Assembly: GCA_020631045.1 (NCBI GenBank)
Contig: JAHDHZ010000006.1
Coordinates: forward strand, 6,469 to 70,468
Length of the DNA stretch: 64,000 nucleotides
Reading direction: 5' to 3'
DNA from: Flavobacteriales bacterium
GTDB taxonomy: Bacteria > Bacteroidota > Bacteroidia > Flavobacteriales_G > JALEGO01
In this document: piece after piece, positions 16,223 through 43,591 of the stretch
Layout: every line of letters begins with the position of its first letter
Numbering within the stretch: position 1 is the first letter of the stretch
Notes under the pieces: generated by a model
Seen by the model: only the letters and a program-made list of their open reading frames with translations
Database searches by the model: none
Told to the model about the DNA's origin: nothing
Position numbers and translations under genes: made by a program

Positions 16223-17223
16223 TCTGAAAAATAGTTGATCAGATGTTCAGACAGTAGTTTGTTTCCTCGCTCATTCAAATGAACATGATCAACAAATAAT
16301 TCTTTTGAATTATTTTCTCGAAAATAGGGTGTTGGGCCTATGTAGGGTAGGCCAATACTTAAACAAAGTTCTTGCATATTTTGATGCATCTTAAGTGCTT
16401 TTACCTCATCGCTGGCAATGACTTCTGAACGGTAAGGAGAGTATAGAATATGTAAAGTAGAACCTTTTGAATGACAGATTTCTTTGAGTTGTTGAAGCTC
16501 ATCTTTTAATTGATTGAGTATTTGATTAGAAATGTTGTGTTGTTGGTTTAAAAAGAAGTCTGCTTTGTTGTTTTTCAGATCAAAGTAATGTTTTTTTTCT
16601 GCCAAGAAAAGATAGAGTGCAAAGTTTTGAAAGTGTTTTTTCAACCAATTTTCTTTAGGGTTTTGAGAGTTAAAGTCTTTGTTTTTTGATCGCTTAATAA
16701 GATCTGTAACATCATTAAAGCAAAGTTGTATGATGGTGTGTTTAGAGATCTGTTTTTCTAAAATTTTAGTTAAAGTATGTTTGATGTCAAGTAGGCCGTA
16801 TCCCTGCATGCTGTAATTGTTTGATTTTGGGTGGATGTTTTTAAACAAGTTGAAAGCACTTGCATCATAAGCAACACCAAACCCTTCAAAGACAGAATCT
16901 CCAAAAAAATTGAAGAGCGGGGCTGATGTGCTGGGGGCTGATCTGAAGCCTTGATTGTTGATTTGGTATGAGTGGTTGAAAATATCAGTGAATTGTGCGT
17001 TGGCTACAAATCTATAACCAATACTCTGAAAAGAAGGAGTGATGTATTTTTTGATGATTTGATGATGTGCACTTGTGCGTTGCTTGCTTTCATAGGTTAC
17101 TGATAGTTTAAGTATACGTACAGCTAGCTCACAAAGAAAAAGCCCCACTATAAGTGAGGCTGTAATCATGCAAATTGAAAAAAAATATTTTTTAAATCGG
17201 GTCATTGGCGCTTGTTTGGCCAC
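16204..17223 (-). CDS. membrane-anchored SGNH/GDSL-type hydrolase
   Basis: N-terminal TM helix, block I FFGDSVFEGFG, and block V DHVHLNERGNKLLSEHL (DxxH). Confidence 0.6.
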   Translation of the reverse strand: MAKQAPMTRFKKYFFSICMITASLIVGLFLCELAVRILKLSVTYESKQRTSAHHQIIKKYITPSFQSIGYRFVANAQFTDIFNHSYQINNQGFRSAPSTSAPLFNFFGDSVFEGFGVAYDASAFNLFKNIHPKSNNYSMQGYGLLDIKHTLTKILEKQISKHTIIQLCFNDVTDLIKRSKNKDFNSQNPKENWLKKHFQNFALYLFLAEKKHYFDLKNNKADFFLNQQHNISNQILNQLKDELQQLKEICHSKGSTLHILYSPYRSEVIASDEVKALKMHQNMQELCLSIGLPYIGPTPYFRENNSKELFVDHVHLNERGNKLLSEHLINYFSDYSSKE

Positions 17224-17710
17224 TGCTTATTTTTTGAATGTCTCGGTCAAATAGATACAAGCCGCTTTTATCGGTGCCAATCAATTTAAGTTTGTCTTTT
17301 AAGCTTCTCGCTAAGTTCTCTTCTTCGATTTGTTCTGAAACATACCATTGCAAGAAATTATGAGTGGTATAATCTTTTTCTTCAAGGCACAAGAAGACCA
17401 ATTTGTTTATCGCATCAGTGACTTTCATTTCATGTTTAAGTAAGTCATCAAAAACTTGAGCAATAGATTTAAATGATTTGGGTGGAGCATCTACTTTTGC
17501 AATGACGGCTCCTGATCCGCGCTCATTGACAAACCTAACGAGCTTTAACATGTGCTGACGTTCTTCTTCAGCGTGCTCATAGAAAAAAGCAGATATGCCT
17601 TCAAATCCTTGTACTTCTGTCCAAGAGGCAATGGCTAAATAAAATTGAGAAGCAGCAGCTTCAAGGGCGATTTGATTGTTGAGGGCTTTTTCTATTTTTT
17701 TTGAAAGCAT
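17192..17710 (-). CDS. ftnA: bacterial non-haem ferritin
   Basis: 172 aa. ALNNQIALEAAASQFYLAIASW...FYEHAEEERQHMLKLVRFVNERG is the ferritin ferroxidase-centre pattern. Confidence 0.9.
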   Translation of the reverse strand: MLSKKIEKALNNQIALEAAASQFYLAIASWTEVQGFEGISAFFYEHAEEERQHMLKLVRFVNERGSGAVIAKVDAPPKSFKSIAQVFDDLLKHEMKVTDAINKLVFLCLEEKDYTTHNFLQWYVSEQIEEENLARSLKDKLKLIGTDKSGLYLFDRDIQKISSGQTSANDPI

Positions 17711-17715
17711 AATCT

Positions 17716-18759
17716 TTAAGTGTTAAAATGTTTAAATCCTTGGGCTTGAAGCGGAACAACAGTTTCGTTTGGAGTTACTAAGTTTTTGCCAGCTTCAGCT
17801 TCAGTAATGTGCCCAATAATATGAATATTTTTTTGATCTTTTAAAGTTTCAAAATCTTTTTGATTGATTGTAAATAACAACTCATAATCTTCTCCTCCAT
17901 TTAAAGCACACATAGTAGGTGAGAGGTTCATTTCAAGGGCAGTAGAGTGAGTTTGTTGATCGATAGGAATCTTTTCTTCATAGATTTGAACCCCACAATT
18001 ACTTGCTTTGCAAATATGAAATAATTCACTGGCCAATCCATCTGAAACATCAATCATCGATGTTGGTTGAATGTTTTGCTGGTCAAAAAATTCAATGAGT
18101 TGCTTTTGTGCTTCAGGCTTAAGCTGCCGTTCAACGATGTAGGCATAAGAAGCTAAATCTGGTTGAATCTGACTGTTTTGCTGAAAGACTTCTTTCTCTC
18201 TTTCAAGCACTTGTAGGCCCATATAGGCAGCTCCAAGATCACCTGTTACACAGATCAAGTCATTGTGCTTAGCACCAGTTCTTTGAGTGATTTTTTCTGA
18301 GTTAGCAAATCCTATGGCAGTTACTGAAATGCACAATCCTGAGGGGCTAGAAGAAGTGTCCCCGCCCACTAAATCAACTTTGTAGCGCTCACATGCTAGG
18401 TGAATGCCTTTGTAGAGTTCTTCTATGGCTTGCAAAGAAAAACGATTCGAAACAGCAATAGAAACAGTTACCTGAGAAGCAAGTGCGTTCATGGCATAGA
18501 TGTCAGATAAATTAACAACAATCGCCTTGTAGCCTAAATGCTTTAAAGGCATATACATTAAGTTAAAATGAGTGCCCTCAATCAAAAGATCAGTTGAGCA
18601 CACTAATTGTTGAGCTTCTTTGGTTTGAATAATTGCAGCGTCATCTCCAATACCCAATTTAGTTTCTGGGTGAAACAACTTGGTTTTTGATGCAATTTGA
18701 TCAATTAGACCAAATTCACCAAGTTCAGAGAGTTCTTCAGGCTGTTTTTTTTTGCTCAT
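17716..18759 (-). CDS. thiL: thiamine-monophosphate kinase
   Basis: 347 aa with KLGIGDDAAII and VGGDTSSS; AIR-synthase-related fold typical of ThiL. Confidence 0.9.
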   Translation of the reverse strand: MSKKKQPEELSELGEFGLIDQIASKTKLFHPETKLGIGDDAAIIQTKEAQQLVCSTDLLIEGTHFNLMYMPLKHLGYKAIVVNLSDIYAMNALASQVTVSIAVSNRFSLQAIEELYKGIHLACERYKVDLVGGDTSSSPSGLCISVTAIGFANSEKITQRTGAKHNDLICVTGDLGAAYMGLQVLEREKEVFQQNSQIQPDLASYAYIVERQLKPEAQKQLIEFFDQQNIQPTSMIDVSDGLASELFHICKASNCGVQIYEEKIPIDQQTHSTALEMNLSPTMCALNGGEDYELLFTINQKDFETLKDQKNIHIIGHITEAEAGKNLVTPNETVVPLQAQGFKHFNT

Positions 18760-18765
18760 GTTATA

Positions 18766-21700
18766 CTAGTGAGAAATTAGTTTTTTAATAATTGGCCCTT
18801 GGCTTGTTTGAATAATTAAGCTGTAAATGCCGCTGTTTAATTGGGTTTGTATCTGTTTGTCTACAATTAAGTTATGGTTTGTGTAAACGCGTTTTGCTAA
18901 TCCATCAAAAATGTCAATGCTCAATATGTTTTTGTGCTTAAGCGCAGTTAAATCAAGGTTGAACATTCCGTCATTGCTTGGGTTAGGATAGACCATAATT
19001 GCATCGCTTATTGTTTTTAAATCAATACTGTTGGGCGCGGCAATTGTAATGGTACATACATCTGAGAAATTACCCCACTCGCCGTTGATTTTAACAGCTA
19101 CAGTTACTTCATAGAGTACTTCTGTTTCAGCGCTGTCTAACCAAGTGAATTGAAAGTCATTGCTTGGTATAAGTCTTGTATATTCTTGTGTAGTGCCAGT
19201 TTGAGTGTTGGTGATGCTCCATTTGTAATCTTCAGCTCCCGTAATAGGGTCAGCATATAGGTAATCTCCCATATTTACAAGCACTATATTACACATTGAA
19301 TCTATGACTCCTGTTGTTGCAATCGAATTACTGGCTTCAATGTGAAGAAGGCAAGTGTCACTGTATTGGCCGTAGTTTGTGCCGATGTGCGCGCGAACTC
19401 TAACCTGATAGGTTGTGCCATTTGAAATTCCTTGAACAGTATCTAATTGCAAGAAAGGAGCTGCACTTGAAGCCTGAGTAGGATTTCCGTTTAAGTCTGT
19501 AAACAACCATTCATATTCATCTGCTCCGGCAACAACCTCTGCTGAGATGATGTCTGAAAGTGAATTTATGGTATCATTGCAAAGTGCTGCAATTAAGCCA
19601 GTATTTTGGTTTTGGGGAGTTGAGTTTCCTGAACTTGTATCTACTGCAATTTCAAGGTTGATGGTATCAGCGCACACCCCATTTGCAGTAGTGTCAATGA
19701 CAATGAACTCATAATTTCCGGCAGTTAATGCATTGATGAAAATAGAATCTTGATCAACAATTGCAGCAGCTTGCATGCCGTTTTGTAGAATGCCAAAACC
19801 TGATGCTGAAGCAGTATTTGAAACAGCAAGAGTTACTGTTGCATCAGAAGCACTGATGCTTGATTCATAAGTGGTGTCAGCACTTAGAATCGAGAAATTA
19901 CATGGAGTGCTTCCGAAATTGGTAGTGGTAATTGTACAAAATAAGCCTAAGTTAAACTCAGCCCAAGAGCAAGGAGCAACAAAAGCTCGAACAAACACAT
20001 CGTAGGTGGTGTTTGGTAAAATCCCGCTCACAGTATCAATTTGTAGTGTGTTGTCATTTGACAGACTTGTAATCGTGTCTGTACCGTTGACAAACATAAA
20101 TTCATGCATGGTTGATCCTGCAACAGGATTGCCAAACGGAATAAATTTATTGGCACTATCAACAGCCATGATGTTGTTGGCACTTGATGACCCACAAACG
20201 GTTAAGTCAAGAATGGAACTGTTTACAGGTTGAGGTGCACACCCTGTGTCGATGGCAATAGCCAGTAAGGTGTCTGCGCAACTACTGTCGTCTATTACAA
20301 TCACATTATAAAGACCCTCACTTATATTAGAAATAGTCAAAACATTTGATGCAACACTAAATGCCGCGGATAAAAGAGTCGTGCCATTGGTGTCTACTGA
20401 GATGTTGCCATTTGCCCCAGATAGGTTTATTTCTATTGCGCCATCTGAAGCCCCTTGCATGCTTACGGGAGTGTGGTTGCCTTCGGTGATTGATAAATTA
20501 CAATTGAAGGTAGATGTTTGTGGGGTGTAAATTGTACAGCTAGTTCCGTTGCTAGTTGTGTCGCCATCAATAATTGCTTTTAATGAGAAGGTATAGCTGT
20601 CATTTTCATTAAAAAAACTTGCATGATCACTCATGTTGAAAAAATTATTTGAAAACGTAGAAAAACTCGTGTCACTCATGTCAGAAGCCTGAATCACTTC
20701 CCATAAATAAAGAATGGTTGATCCATTAGGGCCATATGGTTGAATGGTAGTTATATCTTGGTTTAGGGAATCTAATGTGTCATTACAAAATAATGAACTG
20801 ATTTGAGGCCCTGTAATCAAATTTAAAGGTGTTGAAATAATACAAGTATCGCCAAAATCAGAAGTGTCTCCATCAACAATTGCTCTTAACGTAAATTCAT
20901 ATGTTTGCCCTTCACTAAAATAGGCAGAGTGGTCAGACACATTGAAGAAGTTATTTGAAAAAGTTTCAAAAACAGTATCGTTTGCTTGCCCCAATTCACT
21001 TACGTGCCATAAGTAGAGTATTGAGTTTGGTGCAGGAACAATTGGTTGGTAAGGTTGTATGGTAGTAATGTCTTGAGAAAGAGAGTCTAGTGTGTCAGAG
21101 CAAAAAGAAGTTGTTATAGAAGGTCCTTGTAAAAGAGCAGTCCCGGGAGTTGTTATTAAACAAGTGTCGCCTGTTAGGGTTGTGTCTCCATCAATCACAG
21201 CATGAAGAAATACTTCGTAAGTTGTGGCTTCATTAAAAAAGGTTGGATAGTCTGATAACTTAATAAAGTTAGTTGTAAATGTCGGAATAACCGTATCTGA
21301 AGTAGAACCCAACTCTTGCGCATGCCAAAAATATAAAATAATATTTGCGGGTGGATTTACAGGTCCGTAAGGTTGTTCTGTTGTTATTTCTTGGTTTAAA
21401 GAATCAAGTGTGTTTGAGCAAAAGTCTTGATTAACGCTCGGGCCTGGTAGTTGATTTGATTCAACAGAGGGAGTGAATAAAGTACATGAATTTACTGAGT
21501 TGTTAGCAGTGCCACCTTGATATCCTCTGATGGTTACAATATACTCAGTTCCAGGAAAAGAATTGAAGGCATCAAATAAGGCTCTACTATTTTGAGTTCC
21601 AGTAAAATCATAGACTGTATCGCCTAAAGTTGTCGTAACAATCCAACTGACAGAATCATGTCCTAAAAGGTTTATGGTTGTTTGTTGAGTAAGGGTGTCG

Positions 21701-23118
21701 ATGGTGTCTGAGCAAGTAGTAGAAAGATCGCCAAAGGGGGGGGTCGGCACTCCGTTGGTAAAGAAAGGAATATTTGTATTGGAGGTTTCTCCTACTGTGA
21801 CTTCAATCGTGTCTTTACATGCCTTGGGGGTGTAGTTGTTGTTGAAGTATTCAACTCTTATTTGATAGGTTCCGGATGTTAAGTTCTGAAATGACGCATC
21901 AGGGAAACCTGGTCCAGATAATTCTGGCGAAATCGTAATTGGTGTAGATTGATCTACATTACTTCTTCTGAATAAATAATTTACAGGACTTGGCGAAGAA
22001 AGGTCTCCTGGGTGGAGTGCTTGAACAGAAATTGACCCGATGCCGCTACTCGCTGAATCATCAATTACTGAGGTATAGTTAAAGCTAAAGTTAGAGCAGT
22101 TCCATGGCTCTGGGTTAATTTTGACATTTTCTTCAATAGTGTTACATGAAACATTACTAGCGTCAAAGACTAAAAAATCATATGCAATGGTATCTAAATT
22201 AATGGCTGTGAAAGGAGCGGTTTGATTAAAGTAATCAATCGATGGAGCTAATATGTCATTTGTTTCTAAAATTTGAATGTCATAAGTGCCCGATCCACCC
22301 GAAATAAAAAGTGTTGCTTGGCCATCATTATAAAGATTAGGAGTTGCGAACTGTGTTTGGAAAGAATCAATCAATAAGGTACACGGCGGGGCAGGAGTAG
22401 TAATAAACAACTGCCCCCATTCAGACATTTTGCTGTTGTTAGGATTTGCAGCATCTATGGCATGCGCATATTCAAGAATATACTGCTCGCCAAGTGCAAC
22501 ACTAAAATTAGCAGTATTAAAATCATCAAAGTAAATAGATCGGTTTGGCCCGCCACTAAACAAGCTTTGGTGAATTGATGAGACGTAATTGCCTTTGTGT
22601 TTTAGTCTAAAAACAATAAGATCATAGTTCACATCGTTTGCAATAAAATTGATTTGTTGGTCAAGAGAATCGAGTTCGTTTTGTGAAAGGTCAGCAGAAT
22701 CAGGACAATTCGGAATCGCAATAGAATTGTCAAGAGGATAAAAGCAAAATTCTACATCGTCAGATATGGGCGGAGACATTGTTCCGTCTTCAGAGCTAAC
22801 TTGAATTTGATTAGGAGCAGAGCCACTGTGCAGGCCGGTGTCTAAGTCTGCGTTTGATAAAATGTATTGAAGGGTTACAAATGTGTCTGTGATTTGAGGG
22901 GTGATTGCGTTGAACATGCCCCACTGTTCAGTGTAAAGATGAAAAATATATCCGTTTACTCCAGGGTTGTTGTCTGTATAACATTTGATCGTATCATTTT
23001 CATTGAATATGATTGGGTTGAGCAGATCAATACCCTCTCTTGGAGAGCTTATTTGAGGTTGGCTCAAAAAAGTAAGTGGTATAAAGAAAAGAATGATATA
23101 TGTATAAAGAGACTTCAT
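18766..23118 (-). CDS. giant secreted multi-repeat surface protein, T9SS type A C-terminal sorting domain
   Basis: 1450 aa with signal peptide MKSLYTYIILFFIPLTFLSQ. It contains many Cys-bracketed ~95-105-aa modules, including three tandem copies at aa ~555-870. The C-terminus VYPNPSNDGMFNLDL...GIYSLIIQTSQGPIIKKLISH fits the Por-secretion-tail (type A CTD) pattern. Confidence 0.8.
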   Translation of the reverse strand: MKSLYTYIILFFIPLTFLSQPQISSPREGIDLLNPIIFNENDTIKCYTDNNPGVNGYIFHLYTEQWGMFNAITPQITDTFVTLQYILSNADLDTGLHSGSAPNQIQVSSEDGTMSPPISDDVEFCFYPLDNSIAIPNCPDSADLSQNELDSLDQQINFIANDVNYDLIVFRLKHKGNYVSSIHQSLFSGGPNRSIYFDDFNTANFSVALGEQYILEYAHAIDAANPNNSKMSEWGQLFITTPAPPCTLLIDSFQTQFATPNLYNDGQATLFISGGSGTYDIQILETNDILAPSIDYFNQTAPFTAINLDTIAYDFLVFDASNVSCNTIEENVKINPEPWNCSNFSFNYTSVIDDSASSGIGSISVQALHPGDLSSPSPVNYLFRRSNVDQSTPITISPELSGPGFPDASFQNLTSGTYQIRVEYFNNNYTPKACKDTIEVTVGETSNTNIPFFTNGVPTPPFGDLSTTCSDTIDTLTQQTTINLLGHDSVSWIVTTTLGDTVYDFTGTQNSRALFDAFNSFPGTEYIVTIRGYQGGTANNSVNSCTLFTPSVESNQLPGPSVNQDFCSNTLDSLNQEITTEQPYGPVNPPANIILYFWHAQELGSTSDTVIPTFTTNFIKLSDYPTFFNEATTYEVFLHAVIDGDTTLTGDTCLITTPGTALLQGPSITTSFCSDTLDSLSQDITTIQPYQPIVPAPNSILYLWHVSELGQANDTVFETFSNNFFNVSDHSAYFSEGQTYEFTLRAIVDGDTSDFGDTCIISTPLNLITGPQISSLFCNDTLDSLNQDITTIQPYGPNGSTILYLWEVIQASDMSDTSFSTFSNNFFNMSDHASFFNENDSYTFSLKAIIDGDTTSNGTSCTIYTPQTSTFNCNLSITEGNHTPVSMQGASDGAIEINLSGANGNISVDTNGTTLLSAAFSVASNVLTISNISEGLYNVIVIDDSSCADTLLAIAIDTGCAPQPVNSSILDLTVCGSSSANNIMAVDSANKFIPFGNPVAGSTMHEFMFVNGTDTITSLSNDNTLQIDTVSGILPNTTYDVFVRAFVAPCSWAEFNLGLFCTITTTNFGSTPCNFSILSADTTYESSISASDATVTLAVSNTASASGFGILQNGMQAAAIVDQDSIFINALTAGNYEFIVIDTTANGVCADTINLEIAVDTSSGNSTPQNQNTGLIAALCNDTINSLSDIISAEVVAGADEYEWLFTDLNGNPTQASSAAPFLQLDTVQGISNGTTYQVRVRAHIGTNYGQYSDTCLLHIEASNSIATTGVIDSMCNIVLVNMGDYLYADPITGAEDYKWSITNTQTGTTQEYTRLIPSNDFQFTWLDSAETEVLYEVTVAVKINGEWGNFSDVCTITIAAPNSIDLKTISDAIMVYPNPSNDGMFNLDLTALKHKNILSIDIFDGLAKRVYTNHNLIVDKQIQTQLNSGIYSLIIQTSQGPIIKKLISH

Positions 23119-23170
23119 TGTTTGTATGTTAACACCAATGTTTTAACGATTAAAAGTAAATTAGGTTGCA

Positions 23171-25504
23171 TTATGGTTGAATATTGAGTTTTTTAACCCA
23201 ATATGATTGTTCAGATTTAAACACCAATAGATAAGTAGAGCTTGGGAGATTTGGTGGTAGTTGAATGTTATTTATGCCTGGCCTTAAGTGATTTGAATAA
23301 ATGCTTTGTCCTTTTAAGTTTTGAATTTCAAGTAAGCTGTTTTGCTCGGCCTCGACAGTTAAAAGTTGATCACGTTTTATGGGGTTAGGATAAAATTGAG
23401 GAGCTTTTTGAGTGTTTTTTTGCTCAATTGAGGTTGCATATTGAGCTGGTATGGTAATCTCACAGGCATCAGCATAAGTGCCCCAAATACCATTTACTTT
23501 TGCTAAAACAGAAATAAAATAGGTGTTTTCGTAAATAAGCCCATTGATGAGGTGTAAGTGCAGGTCTGTAGCTGCAATTTCTCTGGTATATTCAAATACA
23601 TTGCCATTGCGGTCGTCAAGTTTCCATCGAAATTGCTCAGCTCCAGTAACACCCAAACAATATAAAGCACTGTTGGGGCTTTCTAAAGTAGTGCCACACA
23701 TTGAAGGCAAAACCTGAACATTTTCAACTTGATTTTCAGGCAACAAAATCTGACAGGTAGATCCATAGTGGCTCCATTGGTTGTTTACTTGAATGGCTAC
23801 TTGAACTTGCATGTATCCGTCATACCAAATTCCGACTTGAGTCAAGTCTAAAACACCTCTAGAATCAGTGTGCTCTAATTGATCTTGATTTTCAAAAGTC
23901 ATTAAGAAACGATAATTGCTGGCGCCTTGTATAAGATCAGCTTGAAGTGATGCATTTAATGAACTTAGACTCACTGAACAATCTTGTGTTCTTAATTGAG
24001 TTGGTTCAAGTGGAGGATAAGCGGTAGTGATTTGACAGGTTTGGTCATAATTTAAGTAAGAACCGTTTACTTTGCCTTTGACCTGAATATTTATGATTTG
24101 GTCATGACCAATCCCGGGAAGATTTGCCATGTTAAAATAATTGGCAGGGCTTTCAATTTCATGTACAATTCCTGACGAGGTATATTCGAATCGAAACATA
24201 TAATCAGAGGCGTTGGTCACTTGATTACAAGTGATAAATTGATCTAAACTGTCAAGGCGTTGATTGCAAAATTGTGCCTCTATATTGGCTGTAGTAATCG
24301 GAGCAGCTGAAATATGTATAAGACAGATATCGCTGTAATTGCCCCAATGACTATTTACTTGAGCTTTTACGCGCACCTCATAAGAGCTGCTGTAATCAAG
24401 GTGACTTTCGTTAAGGTTGATCGATGTTGAAGAACTTGTTAGTTCAATGATTTGATTAGTAGATGCGTTTTTAAGTTCAAAACTATACATGCTCGCATTG
24501 CTTACTGAAAAACATTCGATTGTTTGATGAAGTCCGTTGAAGCTTGCGTGGCAGTCAGAATTGATGAGCTTAGTGTTTTCAATCGCTGCTTGAGGTGTTT
24601 GAACAGTACAAGAAGTTGAATATCCTGACCACTGACCACCTACAAAAGCTTGCGCTTCGATGTTGTAATTTTGGTTGTAGGTTACTCCATTTGCATCAGA
24701 AAATACAAAGCTCGGGCTTGCGCTAGTTAGTTCGTCAAGTTGTGATCCTGCAAGAGTACTAACTTTAAATTTATAACTCGAAGCTGAAGCCACTGGTTCG
24801 CATGAAATGGTCTCATCAAGGCTGTTGAGTGTGCTGCCACATTGTGCAGTAACTACTTGGGTTGTTGAAGCATTAGATCCTGTAGGAGCACTCACAGCAC
24901 ATGTTTGGCCAAATTGCCCCCAGGTAGTGCCTACTTGAGCGCGTACTGAAATTTGATAGGTAGCGCCCTGTTGAACACCTGAAACAGAATTAAAGATAAA
25001 ATTACGATCACTTCTCTGAATGACTTGATAAGAATTGTCAGGAAATTCAAGTTTGAATTCATAGGTATTGGCATTTGTAACTTGATTGCAATGCACAACA
25101 TCTGTCATTGATGTAAGCGTATGGCCACACTGGGTTGAAATAATACTTGTTTGATCAACAACTGAATCAGGAAATGTAACAAAGCATCCGCTGCTCCAGG
25201 GTCCCCAATTGCCAGCTACTTTTGCTTTTACTTGAATGAGGTAAAGTTCATCATAGTGTTCTAGGTTAGGGATATTCATAAAATTGATTTGAGGCTCGCT
25301 CACAGTTTGACCTGAAACAATAGAGCCTGATCCTGGAGTGAATTGAAACTGATAGAGTTCTGCTGATGCAACAGGATTACAATAAATGAATTGCTCGCCA
25401 ATGACCAGTGTGCTGTTGCATTGATCGGCTATGATTTCAGTGGTTTGACTCTGTGAAATTTGTATTGTTAAAACACAGATAAGAAAAGAGATGATCGGTT
25501 TCAT
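23171..25504 (-). CDS. secreted protein made of seven Cys-bracketed ~95-aa modules + T9SS type A C-terminal sorting domain
   Basis: 777 aa with a signal peptide. Seven units have the form QCGxTLxSLxxxIxCxxVxxAxxYxF...W(G)xYxxxCxVxxP. The C-terminus is FYPNPIKRDQLLTVEA...STYLLVFKSEQSYWVKKLNIQP. Confidence 0.8.
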   Translation of the reverse strand: MKPIISFLICVLTIQISQSQTTEIIADQCNSTLVIGEQFIYCNPVASAELYQFQFTPGSGSIVSGQTVSEPQINFMNIPNLEHYDELYLIQVKAKVAGNWGPWSSGCFVTFPDSVVDQTSIISTQCGHTLTSMTDVVHCNQVTNANTYEFKLEFPDNSYQVIQRSDRNFIFNSVSGVQQGATYQISVRAQVGTTWGQFGQTCAVSAPTGSNASTTQVVTAQCGSTLNSLDETISCEPVASASSYKFKVSTLAGSQLDELTSASPSFVFSDANGVTYNQNYNIEAQAFVGGQWSGYSTSCTVQTPQAAIENTKLINSDCHASFNGLHQTIECFSVSNASMYSFELKNASTNQIIELTSSSTSINLNESHLDYSSSYEVRVKAQVNSHWGNYSDICLIHISAAPITTANIEAQFCNQRLDSLDQFITCNQVTNASDYMFRFEYTSSGIVHEIESPANYFNMANLPGIGHDQIINIQVKGKVNGSYLNYDQTCQITTAYPPLEPTQLRTQDCSVSLSSLNASLQADLIQGASNYRFLMTFENQDQLEHTDSRGVLDLTQVGIWYDGYMQVQVAIQVNNQWSHYGSTCQILLPENQVENVQVLPSMCGTTLESPNSALYCLGVTGAEQFRWKLDDRNGNVFEYTREIAATDLHLHLINGLIYENTYFISVLAKVNGIWGTYADACEITIPAQYATSIEQKNTQKAPQFYPNPIKRDQLLTVEAEQNSLLEIQNLKGQSIYSNHLRPGINNIQLPPNLPSSTYLLVFKSEQSYWVKKLNIQP

Positions 25505-25524
25505 GTTTTATGAGTTTATTTTGC

Positions 25525-28500
25525 TTACTTAATGATCAGCAGTTTGCTTTCTTTTTGAGTGTTTTGCTGTACTAAAATTGTGTATACTCCAGTTGAAAGG
25601 TGGCTAGGTAAATCGATTGATTTGGCTTTCGTAGAGCTTGAAAATACTTCTTGCATGCTTGCATTGTAAATCATGATATTTTTGTGATTTTCATTTGTAA
25701 AACGAATTGAAGAAGCACTTCCCGCAACAGATGGGTTAGGATAAATTGATTCAATGATGCTACTTGTATTGTTGAGCCATTGATTCGAGGTAGTAAAATC
25801 TGAAGGGGTAGTGACTTGGCAGTGTGATCCGTATTCAGTGATGCGGCCATTAATTTGAGCTTTTACGCGAAGTTCGTAGGTGGTGGCACTCTGAGCATTT
25901 TCAAGCCAAATGAATGTAAAGTCATTTTGATTGACATCTCTGATGTATTCTTCTACTTCTAGGGTTTGTCTGTTGGTGATTTGCCAAATGTATTTTTCAG
26001 CTCCACTTAGCTCATTGCACTCTATGAAGTCAGTGATGCGATCAAGAGTTTGTCCGCAAAATTCTTGTTTTACTTCAGTTGTAGGTGCTGAAGGAGTGGT
26101 GATCGCGCAAGAGGTGCCGTAAGTTTGCCAAGCATTGTTGATTCTAGCTTTTACAGAAATCTGATAGGTGCTGGAGTATTGTAATTCATTGACATCATCT
26201 AAGACCAATAAGTTACTTTGAGTGGCTCTTGGGTGCTCAATGACTTGACCATCTGAAGTGATGAATCTCCACTTATACTCTTGAGCATTTGTAAGAGCAT
26301 TGCACTGAATATGATCTGTGAAACTTGAAAGTGTAGTGCCGCAATATGCTGCTTGAACCTCTGTTGTTAAGGCAGGAGGAGCAGGCGTGGTAATAGAACA
26401 AGATGCAGCATACCCCCCCCAAACATTGTTTGATTGAATTTTAACGCGCATGTGATAAGTAGCATCAAACTCAATACCTGCTTGGTTAACAAGATTTATA
26501 GCATTATTTGTGCTTAAAACATATTGAATACTTTGATCAGGATAAGTGATTTCAAACATATATTGTTGAGCACTGTTGATTGGCGTGCAATAAATTAACT
26601 CATCAATTGCATTTAAAAGAGTGTTGCACTGACTGTGGTGGATTTCTGTAGTTGCAATCTGCACTGTTCCTGCGTCAATCGAAACAGACTTTACATCTGA
26701 GCAATTGTTGTTGTCAGTAACTGTTGCGGTGTATGTTGCAGGAGCTAGATTAGAAATACTGCCAGTGTTTGCGCCATTAGACCAGTTGTAGGTGTAAGGA
26801 ACTGATCCACCCGAAACGTTAAGACTTACAGATCCATCAGAAGCACCTTGAGTGGTTTCATTGGTAGAAGAAATGCTTACAGAGAAGTTTTGGCAAGGGT
26901 CATTGCCTGCGTTTACAGAAACAGACTTTACATCTGAGCAATTGTTGTTGTCAGTAACTGTTGCGGTGTATGTTGCAGGAGCTAGATTAGAAATACTGCC
27001 AGTGTTTGCGCCATTAGACCAGTTGTAGGTGTAAGGAACTGATCCACCCGAAACGTTAAGACTTACAGATCCATCAGAAGCACCTTGAGTGGTTTCATTG
27101 GTAGAAGAAATGCTTACAGAGAAGTTTTGGCAAGGGTCATTGCCTGCGTTTACAGAAACAGACTTTACCTCAGAACAATTATTGTTGTCAGTAACAGTCG
27201 CTGTATAAGTAGCTGGCGCTAGATTAGAAATACTGGCAGTGTTTGCGCCATTAGACCAGTTGTAGGTGTAAGGAGCTGATCCACCCGAAACGTTAAGACT
27301 TGCAGATCCGTCAGAAGCACCTTGAGTGGTTTCATTGGCAGAAGAAATGCTTACAGAGAAGTTTTGGCAAGGGTCGCTGCCTGCTTGAATCGTGAAGTTT
27401 TCAGTAGTAAGACATGAAAAAGCATCATAAACACTTACAGAATAGTTGTTGGGAGAAAGATTTTGAAGGCTTTGTTGGGTAGCGCCGTTAGACCAGTTAT
27501 AGGTGTAAGGGGCTGATCCGCCTGAAATACTAACACTCGCAGATCCGTCAGAAGCGCCCTGAATGGTTTCATTGGTGTAAGAAACAAGTAGCGTGTTTTG
27601 GCATGCAGGAGTGCTCAACTGGCAAGTGTTGCCAAACTCTGACCATGCGTTGTTGACCATGCTGCGTACCTTAACGAGATAGGTTTGGTTGTATGTGATG
27701 TTTTGAATTGAATTTAATGAGAAATTATTTGAAGATTGAGTTAAAACGTCATGTGGTGAGCCGTTGGTGTTGAGTATGTGAAATTCGTATTGACTTGCAT
27801 TGCTTACTGGGGTGCACTGAATAGTCTGTTGCATGCTTGAAGCTGTTGAGTTACAAAAGTTTTGAGTAAGTTGAGTTGTGGCAATAGGGTCTGGTTGACT
27901 TGAGCCATAAAACACAACTGAATAATCTTCGGTTTCTCCCATTTCAGGATTGTAACAAGCAGAACTGATGGAGTTGTTGCTCTTGTCAGAGATGACGCGC
28001 ATTCTTAAAAATTGATTTTCAGTTAGGTTGCTTGGAGTGGCGATGCTGCCAGTATGCAGGGTTTTGTTTTGGCTAGAGAATACCTCTTCTGAAGCATCAG
28101 AGAAATCACCATCATTGTTGTAGTCAATAAAGACTTTAATGTTTTCTGTGTTGATGCCATTTTTAATGCTAATAGAATAAGTTGATGTTTTTTCTAGTGC
28201 TGTAAAATAAAAGCAGGTTCTGTCGTTGTATCCGCCGTCTCCAGAGGTACTTAAAGAACTTACATCTAATGTGTTTAGGGTGACGTTTCGAATGCCGTAA
28301 CCAAAGTAATTGTTGGTGTTTGTTGTGGTTGTGAGGCAAGCTTGTGCGGGATTGGTGTTGTTGGATGGAGCAATTAAGGCAGATGAGCTGATCAGTCCTG
28401 AGCGCTCAGTAAGTATGGCTGCTCTCATGCGATCTTTTTGACCTTGTGTAAAGTTAGTTTGACAAGCATCGGAGGAGTAAGAAAGAAAGTTTGAAGAGAT

Positions 28501-29406
28501 TTCGCTTAAATCTCCACCATCACAGCTGTTTGAGCCGCTTGCGCAGCCGTAATCTCTTTTGTGTCTTCTTGTGTCGCTTACGCAATCACCATTTGAGCCA
28601 CAGTCTGAATCGGTAGGGCATCTTAATGTGCCGTCATTAGTAAGGTCTCCCTGAAAAGTGTGGTATAATCCAAAGGCATGCCCCAGTTCGTGAATGACTG
28701 TGATGTTGTGATTTGTGTAAGATTTTAGGTTGTACCCCTTGGTTTGGTTAGGGTCGTATCCAAAAGCATTGTAAAGAATTACTGCTCCGTCATTGCTGCT
28801 GTAAACCGGCGGAAGATAGGCGAATCCTTGTGTGCCTGAAGCACCGTCATTGTCGTTGATTTCACTAACAATCCAAATGTTATAGTAAATTTCTTTGGGC
28901 CATTTACTTAAATCTTTAATCTCGTTTTCATTATCTGCAGAGCCGTAATACACTAGACCAACATTTTGATAATTTGAAGTGTTTGAGGCGTTAATTCTGT
29001 TGATTCCATTTGTGCTGTTGCAGTTTGGATCTCTTTTGGCCAATTCAAATCGAATCAAAGTTTCGACACTTTGTGAAGAGTAGTTGCCACTGTAGGCATC
29101 ATTCAGAGATTGAACTGCACTTTGAATTTGAGCAGTAGAGATGTTAGATCCTTGACCAACAGGTTCTCCGTTGTGCATGATGTGTACTACTAGCGGAATG
29201 GTAAGTGTGTCTTGATTTGATTTTTGCTGAGTACTTAAAAGTGTGTTGTTTATTTTTTTATGATATTCTTTGACAAGATTTGAAAAGTCTGGTCTTCTAA
29301 GTAGTTCATTAAATATGTGATCGCTACCGCATTGCTCGTGCTGTTGAGCTTGTGTGAATTGCGTGAATAGCAGCAGTGCTGCAAAAAGTGTTGTTAAGCG
29401 GTTCAT
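25525..29406 (-). CDS. secreted M43-like (cytophagalysin/pappalysin-type) zinc metalloprotease with GEVED-type domain, SprB-type repeats, Cys-bracketed modules and T9SS type A sorting domain
   Basis: 1293 aa with a signal peptide. It has the metzincin motif HELGHAFGLYHTF (HExxHxxGxxH), GETEDYSV, four SprB-type repeats (QGASDGSxSxxVSGGSxPYTYNWSNG), five Cys-bracketed modules, and the C-terminus IYPNPSVAGSASSIRF...GVYTILVQQNTQKESKLLIIK. Confidence 0.8.
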   Translation of the reverse strand: MNRLTTLFAALLLFTQFTQAQQHEQCGSDHIFNELLRRPDFSNLVKEYHKKINNTLLSTQQKSNQDTLTIPLVVHIMHNGEPVGQGSNISTAQIQSAVQSLNDAYSGNYSSQSVETLIRFELAKRDPNCNSTNGINRINASNTSNYQNVGLVYYGSADNENEIKDLSKWPKEIYYNIWIVSEINDNDGASGTQGFAYLPPVYSSNDGAVILYNAFGYDPNQTKGYNLKSYTNHNITVIHELGHAFGLYHTFQGDLTNDGTLRCPTDSDCGSNGDCVSDTRRHKRDYGCASGSNSCDGGDLSEISSNFLSYSSDACQTNFTQGQKDRMRAAILTERSGLISSSALIAPSNNTNPAQACLTTTTNTNNYFGYGIRNVTLNTLDVSSLSTSGDGGYNDRTCFYFTALEKTSTYSISIKNGINTENIKVFIDYNNDGDFSDASEEVFSSQNKTLHTGSIATPSNLTENQFLRMRVISDKSNNSISSACYNPEMGETEDYSVVFYGSSQPDPIATTQLTQNFCNSTASSMQQTIQCTPVSNASQYEFHILNTNGSPHDVLTQSSNNFSLNSIQNITYNQTYLVKVRSMVNNAWSEFGNTCQLSTPACQNTLLVSYTNETIQGASDGSASVSISGGSAPYTYNWSNGATQQSLQNLSPNNYSVSVYDAFSCLTTENFTIQAGSDPCQNFSVSISSANETTQGASDGSASLNVSGGSAPYTYNWSNGANTASISNLAPATYTATVTDNNNCSEVKSVSVNAGNDPCQNFSVSISSTNETTQGASDGSVSLNVSGGSVPYTYNWSNGANTGSISNLAPATYTATVTDNNNCSDVKSVSVNAGNDPCQNFSVSISSTNETTQGASDGSVSLNVSGGSVPYTYNWSNGANTGSISNLAPATYTATVTDNNNCSDVKSVSIDAGTVQIATTEIHHSQCNTLLNAIDELIYCTPINSAQQYMFEITYPDQSIQYVLSTNNAINLVNQAGIEFDATYHMRVKIQSNNVWGGYAASCSITTPAPPALTTEVQAAYCGTTLSSFTDHIQCNALTNAQEYKWRFITSDGQVIEHPRATQSNLLVLDDVNELQYSSTYQISVKARINNAWQTYGTSCAITTPSAPTTEVKQEFCGQTLDRITDFIECNELSGAEKYIWQITNRQTLEVEEYIRDVNQNDFTFIWLENAQSATTYELRVKAQINGRITEYGSHCQVTTPSDFTTSNQWLNNTSSIIESIYPNPSVAGSASSIRFTNENHKNIMIYNASMQEVFSSSTKAKSIDLPSHLSTGVYTILVQQNTQKESKLLIIK
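26681..27391. repeat. in-frame 237-bp (79-codon) tandem repeat, three full units; units 1 and 2 identical
   Basis: 26681-26917 and 26918-27154 read identically base for base by eye. 27155-27391 is a diverged third unit, and a fourth more diverged unit follows to ~27600. All lie inside the metalloprotease CDS. Confidence 0.9.
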
Positions 29407-33333: not shown

Positions 33334-36300
33334 TTAATGGTGAAATAGTTTCATGCTCTTTAGGAGTCTCTCACCTTGTTTAATTTCAATCAAGTAAATG
33401 CCAGATTGACTTGGCATTTGAAAAGAAATTTGAGCATTTTTTTGAATTTGATTAAAGTTTTTAGAACCTATAACTTGCCCAAGAGCATTGTATAAAGTAA
33501 ATGCAGTAGGAACGTTTGACCCAACTAAAGAAGTGATGCGCGTTTCATTTTCTAATTGCTGTAAAGTAAAATCTTTAGACAATACATCATTTAAACCGAC
33601 AGTAACATTTAAAGAAAGTGTTTGAGTGATTACATCGTCACATCCATTCTCATTGCTTGATACCAGACTAACTGTATATAAACCTGGAGCTTGGTAGGTT
33701 TGTGTAGGATCATCTACAGTTGAGGTGTTGCCGTTGCCAAAATCCCAAGCATAGGTAGTAGCTCCTTGCGAGGTGTTGTTAAATAAAATCTCTTCTCCAA
33801 CAATAAGGGTGTTTGTATCTGTATTGAACCCAGCAATTACTTGAGCAGGCTCTTCAATGGTGTAATTGTAATTTTTAACGCAGGCATTGGCATCTGTGAC
33901 TTGCAAGACATAAGAGCCTCCACTTAAATTAGAGAGAGAATCTCCTGATAAAGCACTGTTGCCCCAAGTAATAACGTAAGGGGTAATACCACCTGAAATA
34001 TTTAAATTGATGGCCCCATTTTGATCACCAAAACAAGATATATTTTCGATGGTTTCTTCAACTAAGAGCTCTGTAGGTGATGCAATTACAAAAGATTCAG
34101 TCTGGCTACACCCTGTCAATGTGTTGGTTAAGGTGATTTGATAATTGCCGTCAGTTAAGTTTGAAATTTGAGCAGTCGTATCTCCATTAGACCACCCATA
34201 GGTATATGTGGCTGAAGGATCTGTAGAGCTAACAGAAGCAGCACCTAAGGTTTGATCACTACATACATTGTTTGTAGTGATTACATCTTGTATCACTTCA
34301 GCTCCTTGGTTAATGGTTGCATTGGTGATGATCGAGCAGCCAGAGCTTGTCTCAGTAATGGTTACAAAATAAGTTGACGGAGAGAGATTGGTAAGTACAT
34401 CTCCTGTCTGGCCATTAGACCAAGCAAATGTTTTGCCTGTATTTCCGTTACTTGCCAAAACAGAGATGCTGCCGTTGTTTGCATCATAACAACTGATATC
34501 TTGAGTCGTAACTTGAGTTGAAAGCAATGAAAGTGGTGCGATGACTTCGATCAAGGCGGTTGACAAAGCTAGATTAGCATCTAATACCTCGACCTTGTAA
34601 ATGCCCTCTTCACTCAAAATAGTTGAATCTGTTGAGTTTGATGTAGTTTCAACTCGAAGGGTGTCGTTGTTTTCATCAATCCATGTAAAGGTATATGGTG
34701 CAACACCTGCCACTTGAACACTAGCCATACCATCATTTGAATTCGCACAAGTAGGTTGTGTTTGTGAAATATTCAAAGGACTCGTAATGTTTAAGAACAG
34801 TCTTCTTAACACAGTATCATTCTTGGTAAATGCATAAGCTTGACCTTCTGTGGTGATTTTTGTAAAAGTTCCTAAAATGGAATCTTCAAGGACAATATTC
34901 TTGTTTTGATTGGTGAAAGCTTCTAGATTATTAAAGGTGATTTGGTAGGTGTCAGTAGATGAAAGTGCTCCATTTCTTCTGTAAAAAACTAAAGGGATTC
35001 TAACGCTTGTTAAATTAGAGGGCAAAGCATTTAATTCAATGAATCTACCTTCGTTGAGCGTTGCGATGTTGATTTGATTGTTTTCATTGCCAAAATCTGA
35101 ATTTTCATGATTCCAGTCATATCCTACAGTTGATTGATCATTTAAGACAATCTGAGCCTCATCAATTCGCTGACCGCCATTTAAGTCTAAGTTAATGCTT
35201 AAGGTTGGAGTTTGAGTGCCTACAACTTTAACAGAATTGTAAGAATCAGCTGCCGCTGATTCAACTTTATCGCTTTCTTGAAAATCAATGCTGGCTGTAC
35301 CATCAACGGCCTGAACAAAAAAGGCTTCTCCTGAAGCAATGACATCTCCAGCACCATCGCCATTGTATGTTACATAATTTCCGCTGTTGTCGTTTTGTAG
35401 TACATAAATCGCTCCACCGTCAGCTCCGGTAATGTTAGACATATTCAAGCTGTCAACATATAGATGTGCTGCGTAAGGATTACCCAGTAAATTCCATCCA
35501 TCACCATAAGTGCATGCTCCTGCAGAGCTTGTAAACGAAAGTCCTGAAATAGAAACATCACCAGAGGCAGGGGTGCCTGAAGTTGTAATGGTATTTCCTG
35601 TATTGTCATAAATGTACCACCCAGAAGTACTTGTGGCGTGATTTAAACTTTGAGCAAACCCTGTTGGGGTAGCGTAATCACACATGGCTTCATCCCAGTA
35701 TGAAATAGAAACAAAAGAACTTGCAGGGTCTTCACTGTCAGGAAATCCGCTAGTATACGTATCGTTTGCCCACTGACCAACATCTGCTGAAGTTACTTGA
35801 GGAGCTAGTGTATACCAGTGTGCAGAATCATCTTCATTTAAAAAGCGTTCAGCGATTAAGTTGCCAGAAAAAGGTGTAGATGGAGCAGCGCCTAAATTAC
35901 CGATTACGGCAGTACCTGTTGCATTTGACTTGAGATAAACACTGCCAGATAAATTAAAGGTTCCGTTTTCAACATCTAATACATTATAGACGTTAAGAAC
36001 AGCTCCCGCCCCGCAAGACAAACCTCCACCTGTATTGTCTAAGAGAATGTTATAAACATTGGTAGTGTCTCCGTCAATGGTCTGCGCCATAGTTGTGCTG
36101 TTGAAACGAATTCTTGAACCATCTGTATAATTAAACCCAGAAGAACCAGCATTGTTTAACCAATTACCTTGCACTGAAAAGTGTTTTTCAGCCCCATTCA
36201 AAGTGCTGCCTGTTTCAATTGAAACATCTCCGAAAGACAAGCTGTCATGTCCAGAATTTAAGTTTAATGTCGTATTGTTGTTGATTTGTACAGCACCTAA

Positions 36301-37605
36301 AAAGCTAAGACCTTCAATGTTTTGAGAAGATCCTAAAAAGCGAATGGTATCAGCGTTTGATCCGTTAAAGGTTCCTAAATCTTTGAAGTTTCCGTTTATA
36401 GTAAATCCTTGATTGTAAGAAAACACACCGTTAGTATCTACTAAAAATTCATTTGTTGTAACATCAGAGCTGGCATCTAAAACAACCCCCCCAACAACAT
36501 TTGTGTTTGACACTTTGAACAATCCATCAAACGTAGAAGTGCCAAATACTGTTTGAGTACCCGTGCCTACAAAGTCAAAAGTGTCTGTGGTAAGTAAATT
36601 TAAAGTGCCTTGATTATAAAAATCATTATTTAGATAAATATTGTTGTTGTTAGAATTTAAAATTCCGCCAGAAGCAATGCGAAGATCACCTAAAATTGAC
36701 GAGGCTTCAACATCAGTGCTCAAGTTTAAGCCAGAAGCATTTGAAACATATAAGTCATGATATTCAAAAGTTGAAACATGGCTGAACGATTGAGTTGCTG
36801 ATCCGTTGTAGTAAAAAGAAGAGGTATTTGATGCGTCAGCATTAATAGTTGCTCCATTTACAACAGTAAGCGTTCCATTTAAAAACACAGTAGCATCTGC
36901 GGTCTGCATATCAAGGGTTAAAGATGAAGCTGGTGCAGCAGATGGATTCGTGAAGCTTAGATTGTTGACTATAAGAGTGTCATTTACATCAATAGTAACA
37001 GAAGATCCACTACCGACAATAGTTGTTGCAAGTTGACTAGAAATAGTTGCTTGATCGTTAACATTTAAGCTAACATTTCCTCCGCTAATGCCTATAAGTA
37101 CTAAATTACTTGCGACATTTAAATCACCCGATACATTCCAAGTAATTACCGTGCCTGATTGTGCAAATAGACTGTTGTTTCCTGAGGCTAAATTTAAATT
37201 CATCTCGCCGTTCTGGTCTATAGTAGTATTGCCTGATGCTAGATTGCCACCAAAAGAACCTGCTACATTTACAACACCATTATTTGTGAAAATCAATGCT
37301 GCGCCAACTCCTGATGTTTGTTGAATAGTAACAGCGCCATTTATATTCAGCGTATCACCTGCAGAGACCGTAACTAGGTGAAAAAATCCGCCATTGATGG
37401 TTAGGTTGTTGCATTCAGCATTTTCTGATGTAGTAATAAAATGGTCTGCATTAATTATAACATTGTCTGCAGGGCCAGGAATACATCCGCAATCCCAAGA
37501 ATCTTCAGAGCTCCAATCAGTATCAATACCAGTTGAGTTGATTTGGGCAACAACAATGCTTTGTATTGTTAGGGTAAGGGCGAAAAAAGTAAATAATTTC
37601 TTCAT
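33334..37605 (-). CDS. giant secreted adhesin-like protein: beta-helix-like N-terminal region, SprB-type repeats, PKD-like domain, T9SS type A-like C-terminal domain
   Basis: 1423 aa with a signal peptide. The ~600-aa N/G/T/S-rich region has a short repetitive strand pattern. SprB-type units are present (CANSNDGMASVQVAGVAPYTFTWID; CYDANNGSISVLASNG; CFGDQNGAINLNISGGITPYVITWG), plus the PKD-like YAWDFGNGNTSTVDDPTQTYQAPGLYTVSLV. The C-terminus is FTLYNALGQVIGSKNF...GIYLIEIKQGERLLKSMKLFHH. Confidence 0.75.
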   Translation of the reverse strand: MKKLFTFFALTLTIQSIVVAQINSTGIDTDWSSEDSWDCGCIPGPADNVIINADHFITTSENAECNNLTINGGFFHLVTVSAGDTLNINGAVTIQQTSGVGAALIFTNNGVVNVAGSFGGNLASGNTTIDQNGEMNLNLASGNNSLFAQSGTVITWNVSGDLNVASNLVLIGISGGNVSLNVNDQATISSQLATTIVGSGSSVTIDVNDTLIVNNLSFTNPSAAPASSLTLDMQTADATVFLNGTLTVVNGATINADASNTSSFYYNGSATQSFSHVSTFEYHDLYVSNASGLNLSTDVEASSILGDLRIASGGILNSNNNNIYLNNDFYNQGTLNLLTTDTFDFVGTGTQTVFGTSTFDGLFKVSNTNVVGGVVLDASSDVTTNEFLVDTNGVFSYNQGFTINGNFKDLGTFNGSNADTIRFLGSSQNIEGLSFLGAVQINNNTTLNLNSGHDSLSFGDVSIETGSTLNGAEKHFSVQGNWLNNAGSSGFNYTDGSRIRFNSTTMAQTIDGDTTNVYNILLDNTGGGLSCGAGAVLNVYNVLDVENGTFNLSGSVYLKSNATGTAVIGNLGAAPSTPFSGNLIAERFLNEDDSAHWYTLAPQVTSADVGQWANDTYTSGFPDSEDPASSFVSISYWDEAMCDYATPTGFAQSLNHATSTSGWYIYDNTGNTITTSGTPASGDVSISGLSFTSSAGACTYGDGWNLLGNPYAAHLYVDSLNMSNITGADGGAIYVLQNDNSGNYVTYNGDGAGDVIASGEAFFVQAVDGTASIDFQESDKVESAAADSYNSVKVVGTQTPTLSINLDLNGGQRIDEAQIVLNDQSTVGYDWNHENSDFGNENNQINIATLNEGRFIELNALPSNLTSVRIPLVFYRRNGALSSTDTYQITFNNLEAFTNQNKNIVLEDSILGTFTKITTEGQAYAFTKNDTVLRRLFLNITSPLNISQTQPTCANSNDGMASVQVAGVAPYTFTWIDENNDTLRVETTSNSTDSTILSEEGIYKVEVLDANLALSTALIEVIAPLSLLSTQVTTQDISCYDANNGSISVLASNGNTGKTFAWSNGQTGDVLTNLSPSTYFVTITETSSGCSIITNATINQGAEVIQDVITTNNVCSDQTLGAASVSSTDPSATYTYGWSNGDTTAQISNLTDGNYQITLTNTLTGCSQTESFVIASPTELLVEETIENISCFGDQNGAINLNISGGITPYVITWGNSALSGDSLSNLSGGSYVLQVTDANACVKNYNYTIEEPAQVIAGFNTDTNTLIVGEEILFNNTSQGATTYAWDFGNGNTSTVDDPTQTYQAPGLYTVSLVSSNENGCDDVITQTLSLNVTVGLNDVLSKDFTLQQLENETRITSLVGSNVPTAFTLYNALGQVIGSKNFNQIQKNAQISFQMPSQSGIYLIEIKQGERLLKSMKLFHH

Positions 37606-41569: not shown

Positions 41570-43591
<2,022 letters not shown>

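Follow-up and report, generated by a model that had tools for sequence, protein, structure and literature searches.

An uncurated fibronectin type III-like module repeated in three putative type IX secretion cargo proteins of a Flavobacteriales bacterium

Fibronectin type III (FN3)-like linkers of bacterial glycoside hydrolases lie between the domains of secreted enzymes and are usually viewed as spacers. The isopeptide-stapled immunoglobulin (Ig)-like domains of Gram-positive pilins and adhesins are arranged in tandem, carry a covalent bond between their first and last β-strand and resist both force and proteases. Here, we describe a repeated module of ~91 aa, recurring about every 96 aa, in the products of three consecutive minus-strand genes of a Flavobacteriales bacterium (assembly GCA_020631045.1, contig JAHDHZ010000006.1, positions 6,469 to 70,468; this whole stretch of 64,000 nt is referred to as the window). 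The genes are named A1450, B777 and C1293 after the lengths of their products. The glycoside hydrolase linkers are normally recognised by the Pfam family fn3 (PF00041), occur in one to three copies and lack a cysteine bracket, whereas the module is framed by two conserved cysteines, C1 and C3 (columns 9 and 86), with a third position, C2, at column 22. The bond that C1 and C3 may form could be regarded as a functional analogue of the isopeptide staple, from which it would differ in chemistry (disulfide instead of Lys-Asn/Asp isopeptide), in the absence of a sortase route and in phylum, and to which it has no sequence relationship.

Among characterised proteins, the nearest analogue of C1293 is cytophagalysin CPL1 of Cytophaga sp. 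L43-1, which combines a lower-pappalysin M43 domain and its prosegment with a chain of Ig-like domains, including the FNIII-type D7 and D9, and a C-terminal domain (CTD) for a type IX secretion system (T9SS; PMC11674741). Its Ig-like domains have been interpreted as linkers or stabilisers, and its FNIII domains are described without an A'-G disulfide, the four predicted disulfides lying elsewhere (PMC11674741). C1293 follows the same design but also contains GEVED and SprB units, both missing from CPL1, although CPL1 and the module were compared by description only. The SprB repeat (PF13573) itself resembles the module in that it occurs in the same proteins as short, Cys-bracketed, β-rich units, tandemly amplified in T9SS cargo. 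It is, however, a separate sequence family of 79 aa with the motif GASDGS...GGxxPYxYxW, and hidden Markov models (HMMs) of the SprB-type unit and of the module do not match each other. FN3 fold, secretion route and multi-Ig-repeat design are all familiar, and the present result is one of domain curation and structural detail, not a new system: the repeat is real and statistically robust, an uncurated variant of a well-known fold, with moderate value for curation and modest biological surprise.

An FN3-like module with a cysteine pair

The three minus-strand open reading frames (ORFs; 1450, 777 and 1293 aa) are present where the original prediction, made from the sequence without database searches, had placed them. 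A first HMM from Cys-bracketed segments was followed by a family HMM of 91 positions, built from 925 module matches of which 891 were full-length. Against the latter, the canonical window copies reach E-values of 1e-20 to 1e-30, far beyond chance, and the divergent copies of A1450 lie between 6e-7 and 3e-13. The prediction that all three genes reuse one module is borne out, and the start and end motifs it had named agree with the formal consensus CxxTLxSxxxxIxCxxVxxAxxYxF ... TYxxxVxAxVNxxWGxYxxxCxITxP. In total, the window holds 18 copies, and an HMM scan detected none in any other of its ORFs. Seven of them lie in B777, exactly as predicted, with starts 94–97 aa apart. For the protease C1293, five had been proposed and four were found, aa 601–916 being taken up by four 79-aa SprB-type units instead, and instead of the “many more” copies expected, A1450 has seven (two canonical, five divergent), with four SprB-like units interspersed among them.

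With respect to known families, Pfam fn3 (gathering cutoff 25) reports one of the 18 copies, a partial and weak match to one stretch of B777 (28.5 bits, profile positions 29–78 of 84); A1450 stays under the cutoff with 19.9 bits and C1293 gives no match. Ten relatives from elsewhere contain zero to one sub-threshold fn3 stretches each, NCBIfam has nothing across the module in the window proteins or in these ten relatives, and a PDB profile search with the module returned marginal FN3 matches only. The earlier expectation that no described domain matches the module end to end consequently holds in Pfam-A and NCBIfam, with the partial fn3 match of one copy. The module is a divergent FN3 subfamily modelled by neither database, and no description of it was found in full-text literature searches.

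An AlphaFold2 model of B777 module 2, whose input alignment comprised the 13 canonical copies of the window, reached a predicted local distance difference test score (pLDDT) of 97.3 and a predicted template modelling score (pTM) of 0.86. In a Foldseek search of the PDB, FN3 domains were retrieved almost exclusively, with 1ujt, EphA4, neogenin and integrin β4 at the top (TM-score 0.6–0.73, identity 10–20%, 82–100 aligned columns for a 90-residue query). Covariation among the 891 full-length modules gives the FN3 strand pairs C-F (34-70, 32-72), F-G (68-87, 66-89) and B-E (19-54, 20-53). Fold model and covariation both point to the seven-stranded 3+4 β-sandwich of FN3, with sheets ABE and GFCC', and the predicted fold spans the entire module. 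The FN3 likeness noted in the original prediction therefore stands, and its restriction to the C-terminal half does not.

Besides the predicted sandwich and the weak partial matches, the module shares with fn3 the C-strand Tyr (Y31, 97% conserved over the 891 modules) and the F-strand consensus TYxVxVxA (Y67, 95%; V71, 88%). Column 22, which is Ala or Cys, presumably corresponds to the canonical B-strand Trp position of FN3. The differences comprise the conserved A'-G cysteine pair, the FG loop NGxWGxYG, the alignment of only profile positions ~29–78 of 84 and the strict association of the module with T9SS CTDs in Flavobacteriales. The region between strands C and C' (positions 36–52) is hypervariable.

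C1 and C3 are present in all 18 window copies and are each 96% conserved over the 891 modules, 849 of which carry both, 10 a single one and 32 neither. In mean-field direct coupling analysis (DCA), the column pair 9-86 ranked second of 3,741, and the couplings 3-83, 3-84 and 12-89 support an N-terminal A' segment parallel to strand G. Since the pair is co-conserved, lost together and linked by the second-strongest direct coupling, a contact between C1 and C3 is strongly supported, and the two very probably form an A'-G disulfide. The 32 modules lacking the pair are spread across 16 proteins and often have Arg/Tyr or Ser/Ser instead. Arg at C1 together with Tyr at C3 is the commonest replacement (8 of 32, e.g., in P0010 and P0049), possibly a cation-π substitute for the disulfide.

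The original prediction had described a conserved cysteine triad, of which C1 and C3 are retained as a pair. C2 occurs in 10 of the 18 window copies and in 28% of the family, where Ala is found in 49%: it is absent from module 6 of B777 and from the divergent A1450 modules 1–4, which keep C1 and C3, and is replaced by Ala in the alignment of A1450 modules 6 and 7. As a disulfide partner, C2 is ruled out by its lack of coupling to C1 and C3 (pairs 9-22 and 22-86 rank ~3,450th of 3,741). Its position covaries with position 33, Cys being combined with Trp or Tyr in 62% and Ala with Phe in 88% of cases. Judged by these patterns, C2 is a facultative cysteine of the B-strand, apparently buried in the core and packing on the aromatic residue at position 33.

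Sorting signals, family range and origin of the genes

A type-A T9SS sorting domain (PF18962 Por_Secre_tail / TIGR04183) forms the C-terminus of all three proteins, in line with their earlier designation as T9SS cargo. The CTD of B777 scores slightly below the curated cutoffs (27 for PF18962, 23 for TIGR04183), yet it aligns over the full length of the profile (positions 2–72 of 72). The N-termini MKSLYTYIILFFIPLTFLSQ, MKPIISFLICVLTIQISQSQ and MNRLTTLFAALLLFTQFTQAQ, read by eye from the translations, are hydrophobic and represent putative Sec signal peptides. A1450, B777 and C1293 are thus most likely Sec-exported proteins that are secreted by the T9SS via their type-A CTD and act at the surface or extracellularly. 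Among the window ORFs scanned, no gene of the T9SS machinery (GldKLMN/SprA/PorV/PorU) was identified; the presence of other CTD-bearing cargo in the window (the CHU_C protein at 38256–41504) argues for an organism with this system.

When 1.84 billion representative proteins were searched exhaustively with the module profile, 2,870 clusters (50% identity) passed E ≤ 1e-3 and 944 of these passed E ≤ 1e-30, with up to 20 copies per protein. A word-indexed homologue search was too weak for this family, as it gave no relatives with the module profile and three with the whole 777-aa protein, and a genome scan seeded with B777 peptides found no relative. A1450, B777 and C1293 each form an unnamed singleton cluster, and all cluster members named in public sources are called “hypothetical protein”. 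The module makes up a sizeable body of “hypothetical” sequence within the secretomes of Flavobacteriales, and a curated model would improve the annotation of T9SS cargo and help to locate functional heads.

A motif-seeded genome scan yielded 77 loci, nearly all from Flavobacterium, Flavobacteriaceae, Flavobacteriales or Bacteroidia; this taxonomic picture is biased, as the scan samples the motif YG[TAS][AS]C[NT]VTTP only, the 43-sequence alignment being too diverse for a pattern. Flavobacterium sp. BFFFF2 has nine module loci, two other metagenome-assembled genomes (MAGs) have eight each, and same-strand tandem module genes occur at 12 of the 77 loci. Module contigs were also met in MAGs labelled Hydrocarboniphaga (L011), Cellvibrionaceae (L042), Bdellovibrio (L045) and ‘Chitinophaga pinensis’ (L017/L024). 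Because the range is otherwise strictly Flavobacteriales/Bacteroidia, contamination during binning or a wrong label appears to explain the first three, whose labels are not from Bacteroidota; the MAG labelled Chitinophaga, outside Flavobacteriales, could be genuine.

Every complete family member scanned carries Por_Secre_tail or TIGR04183. The array adjoins the CTD: among the top 150 proteins, 90% have their last module end 60–140 aa short of the C-terminus. The N-terminal heads are varied and include GEVED, GBD_T9SS_assoc, Big_2, PKD_6, Ig_7, YDG, LTD, SBBP, Ig_3 and TIG+M10; the M43+GEVED design of C1293 was met twice among the relatives scanned.

In the original prediction, the three genes were taken for tandem paralogues that arose by whole-gene duplication and were then each expanded by internal module amplification. 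They are indeed adjacent on the same strand, with gaps of 52 nt (A1450/B777) and 20 nt (B777/C1293), and have the domain family and the CTD type in common. Module 7 of A1450 and module 4 of C1293 are reciprocal best matches (37% identity), and A1450 modules 2–4 are mutually 51–58% identical. Apart from these three, however, the window modules are only 19–37% identical in pairwise comparison, across as well as within genes, and no DNA-level repeat was detected among them. Every canonical window module finds its best match in a foreign genome (36–44%, compared to 30–38% within its own three genes), the three CTDs are not each other's nearest relatives, and where the protease has relatives in other genomes, these are solitary genes with unrelated neighbours. 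A recent whole-gene duplication is therefore unsupported, because modules and CTDs match foreign genomes better, and we regard this origin as highly improbable. Lineage-specific amplification is limited to A1450 modules 2–4, a triplication, and to the 237-nt SprB-type unit of C1293.

Likewise, the last modules before the CTDs had been proposed to form a subtype of their own. This applies to the pair of A1450 module 7 and C1293 module 4 and fails for the last module of B777, which is closest to the penultimate C1293 module. The subtype (W57) is moreover not particular to these genes, since it comprises 114 of the 891 modules (13%) across the family. It is an old, family-wide subtype with weak enrichment near the CTD (19% of CTD-adjacent modules versus 12%, p = 0.026).

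Possible roles of the module array

As the array adjoins the CTD, the heads in front of it are varied and the joints appear flexible, the best reading is that of a flexible, disulfide-hardened stalk for T9SS type-A cargo, which we consider reasonably probable. Flexibility is suggested by an AlphaFold2 model of two modules (pLDDT 92.9), in which a low pTM of 0.56 and a drop of the pLDDT to 74 in the linker block speak for movable joints instead of a rigid rod. A rigid-rod model of the array was dropped on account of this tandem pTM.

In each module, the N-terminal A/A' segment with C1 runs beside strand G, the last of the fold, on which C3 lies, and a C1-C3 disulfide, very probably formed in the periplasm ahead of T9SS export, would covalently close a loop of residues 9–86 in the 91-aa domain. 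The modules are connected by linkers of 5–6 residues that leave the inter-domain angle free, and the protease- and force-resistant stalk would keep a variable N-terminal head at a distance from the cell surface or an anchor after removal of the CTD. In the window, these heads would be the ulilysin-like M43B protease with GEVED and SprB units in C1293 and, in A1450, a head of no assigned family with SprB-like units. B777 would be all stalk and may itself serve as a surface fibril or adhesin. The pairing of cysteines on the first and last strand offers a testable idea on how Bacteroidota could harden their surface proteins beside their own secreted proteases.

Several points weigh against a plain stalk. 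Proteins consisting of modules only (B777, P0012, P0018) would be unusual if the module were purely a spacer and suggest that it may have a function of its own, the hypervariable C-C' region is reminiscent of binding scaffolds, and further T9SS cargo of the window does without the module. Moreover, the case for the C1-C3 disulfide is a statistical one, in which the Fisher p of 8e-49 for co-loss of C1 and C3 is inflated by relatedness among the modules, and attachment of A1450, B777 and C1293 to the cell, as opposed to their release, is something we infer.

The main rival accordingly assigns ligand binding to the modules themselves: they would bind carbohydrate or protein, repeated for avidity, and the proteins would be multivalent surface adhesins. 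Headless all-module proteins, among them also P0022, and the hypervariable C-C' region would fit this alternative, as would the many loci per genome (nine, eight and eight) and the tandem sets described above, which are typical of adhesin families. On the other hand, the conserved positions are core or structural ones (Y31, Y67, V71, A28, G83 and W79, the latter being coupled to positions 32 and 74 of the sheet), a conserved surface patch was not identified, and the module proteins have no match to a carbohydrate-binding module (CBM) or adhesin family in Pfam-A. The fixed position of the array beside the CTD, behind very different heads, also fits a spacer better, and we consider the adhesin alternative unlikely.

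Alternatively, the CTD-proximal module could be part of the secretion signal context and aid T9SS recognition, PorV/PorU handling or CTD cleavage, similar to a role reportedly proposed for the Ig superfamily domain in front of the RgpB CTD of P. gingivalis. The location of the array next to the CTD in 90% of the family proteins and the mild enrichment of the W57 subtype there would be in agreement with such a function. One domain would suffice for it, however, yet 4–20 copies are found, and some modules lie well away from the CTD (e.g., module 1 of C1293, modules 1–5 of A1450). Other type-A and type-B cargo of the window lacks the module, which is therefore not required for secretion. Taken together, a role in the secretion context appears highly improbable.

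Going beyond the stalk, it is conceivable, if doubtful, that the module is an FN3 subfamily specialised for T9SS type-A cargo, in which the A'-G disulfide makes the domains essentially inextensible and protease-proof, and that headless B777-like proteins give Flavobacteriales a dedicated class of adhesins or a fibrillar layer on their surface. If true, this would be a disulfide-based Gram-negative counterpart of the isopeptide-stapled pilin domains of Gram-positive bacteria.

Protein architectures and genomic surroundings

The features of the three genes are compiled in Table 1. As originally predicted, C1293 is the only one of the three proteins with a catalytic head. It scores 62 bits against PF05572 Peptidase_M43 (cutoff 23), matches ulilysin (E 7e-25, aa 22–339) and mirolysin (E 3e-20) in a PDB sequence search and contains HELGHAFGLYH in its translation, fitting the extended zinc motif HExxHxxGxxH. 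By these sequence features, the head is assigned to the M43B (lower pappalysin) metallopeptidases.

Table 1. Features of the three cargo genes (coordinates are positions in the window).
Feature	Coordinates	Strand	Evidence and content
A1450 (1450 aa)	18766-23118	minus	ORF; putative signal peptide, N-terminal region aa ~20-245, SprB-like units interleaved with 7 FN3-like modules, CTD
A1450 type-A CTD (aa 1376-1450)	18769-18993	minus	PF18962 39.1 bits, TIGR04183 29.7 bits
A1450 canonical modules 6-7 (aa about 1172-1261, 1268-1360)	19039-19605	minus	family HMM E 2.6e-24, 2.4e-28
A1450 divergent module 5 (aa about 975-1066)	19921-20196	minus	family HMM E 5.3e-12
A1450 SprB-like Cys-bracketed unit (aa 870-962)	20233-20511	minus	HMM from C1293 units, E 5.3e-7
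A1450 divergent modules 1-4 (aa about 465-550, 560-658, 666-764, 771-866)	20521-21726	minus	family HMM E 6e-7 to 3e-13
B777 (777 aa)	23171-25504	minus	ORF and HMM; putative signal peptide, seven FN3-like modules, CTD; no further domain
B777 type-A CTD (aa 705-777)	23174-23392	minus	PF18962 21.1 bits, TIGR04183 21.6 bits, local CTD HMM E 6e-13
B777 seven modules (aa 21-112, 118-207, 214-304, 310-399, 405-495, 501-589, 595-686)	23447-25444	minus	family HMM E 5e-22 to 2e-30
C1293 (1293 aa)	25525-29406	minus	ORF; putative signal peptide, prosegment, predicted M43B metallopeptidase, GEVED, module 1, four SprB-type units, modules 2-4, CTD
C1293 type-A CTD (aa 1221-1293)	25528-25746	minus	TIGR04183 34.4 bits (cutoff 23), PF18962 26.4 bits (cutoff 27)
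C1293 FN3-like modules 2-4 (aa 919-1008, 1014-1105, 1109-1201)	25804-26652	minus	family HMM E 2.6e-27, 4.3e-30, 1.5e-28
C1293 four 79-aa Cys-bracketed SprB-type units (aa 601-916)	26659-27606	minus	Pfam SprB 4 stretches, local HMM, 237-nt tandem repeat
C1293 FN3-like module 1 (aa 510-600)	27607-27879	minus	family HMM E 1.6e-30
C1293 GEVED (aa 422-497)	27916-28143	minus	Pfam PF20009, 55.9 bits, E 7.7e-15
C1293 prosegment and predicted ulilysin-like catalytic domain (aa 22-339)	28390-29343	minus	PDB sequence search: proulilysin 8cdb residues 37-339

The SprB-type units of C1293 reach a total of 112 bits against PF13573 (cutoff 28) in four stretches with a period of 79 aa. The last three are nearly identical and appear at the DNA level as the 237-nt tandem repeat (26669–27584, identity 98/90/~84%). 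This repeat is a recent amplification, and its copy number could differ between strains or collapse in assemblies. In A1450, an HMM from the C1293 units returned weaker SprB-like candidates at aa 246–340, 341–440 and 1072–1163 (E 0.03–0.06). The N-terminal 245 aa of A1450 (22384–23118, minus strand) have no family match and contain the module-like fragments GVNGYIFHLY and WGQLFITTP, ending without C3. Two extra degenerate modules were considered for aa 20–245 and were not significant with the family HMM (E 0.43); the region may comprise two decayed modules or a novel head. A 106-aa ORF on the plus strand (22867–23187), antisense to the start of A1450 and the end of B777, is almost certainly spurious.

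The gaps of 20 and 52 nt suggest that A1450, B777 and C1293 are co-transcribed. Promoter and terminator scans, which do not cover Bacteroidota promoters, performed no better than on shuffled sequence, and an Rfam search of the window gave no match. Only 6 nt past the end of A1450 begins an AIR-synthase-like gene (17716–18759, minus strand; ThiL-type, as judged by sequence reading), followed by a ferritin-like gene (17192–17710, minus strand). The sole terminator-like hairpin of the minus strand (17161–17141) lies after the latter. Considering the 6-nt spacing and the position of this hairpin, the cargo genes may be co-transcribed with these housekeeping genes.

Apart from the three genes described here, the window is rich in genes for surface proteins. 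Three further large repeat proteins without the FN3-like module are encoded on its minus strand, at least two of which are T9SS cargo: one with repeats of the SprB and PKD types as well as a type-A-like CTD (33334–37605; local HMM E 1e-7), one with SprB repeats and a CHU_C type-B CTD, mentioned above, and one with PKD and SprB repeats in which no CTD was detected (52355–56770). The window also contains gyrB, encoding DNA gyrase B (41570–43540, minus strand), and is therefore chromosomal.

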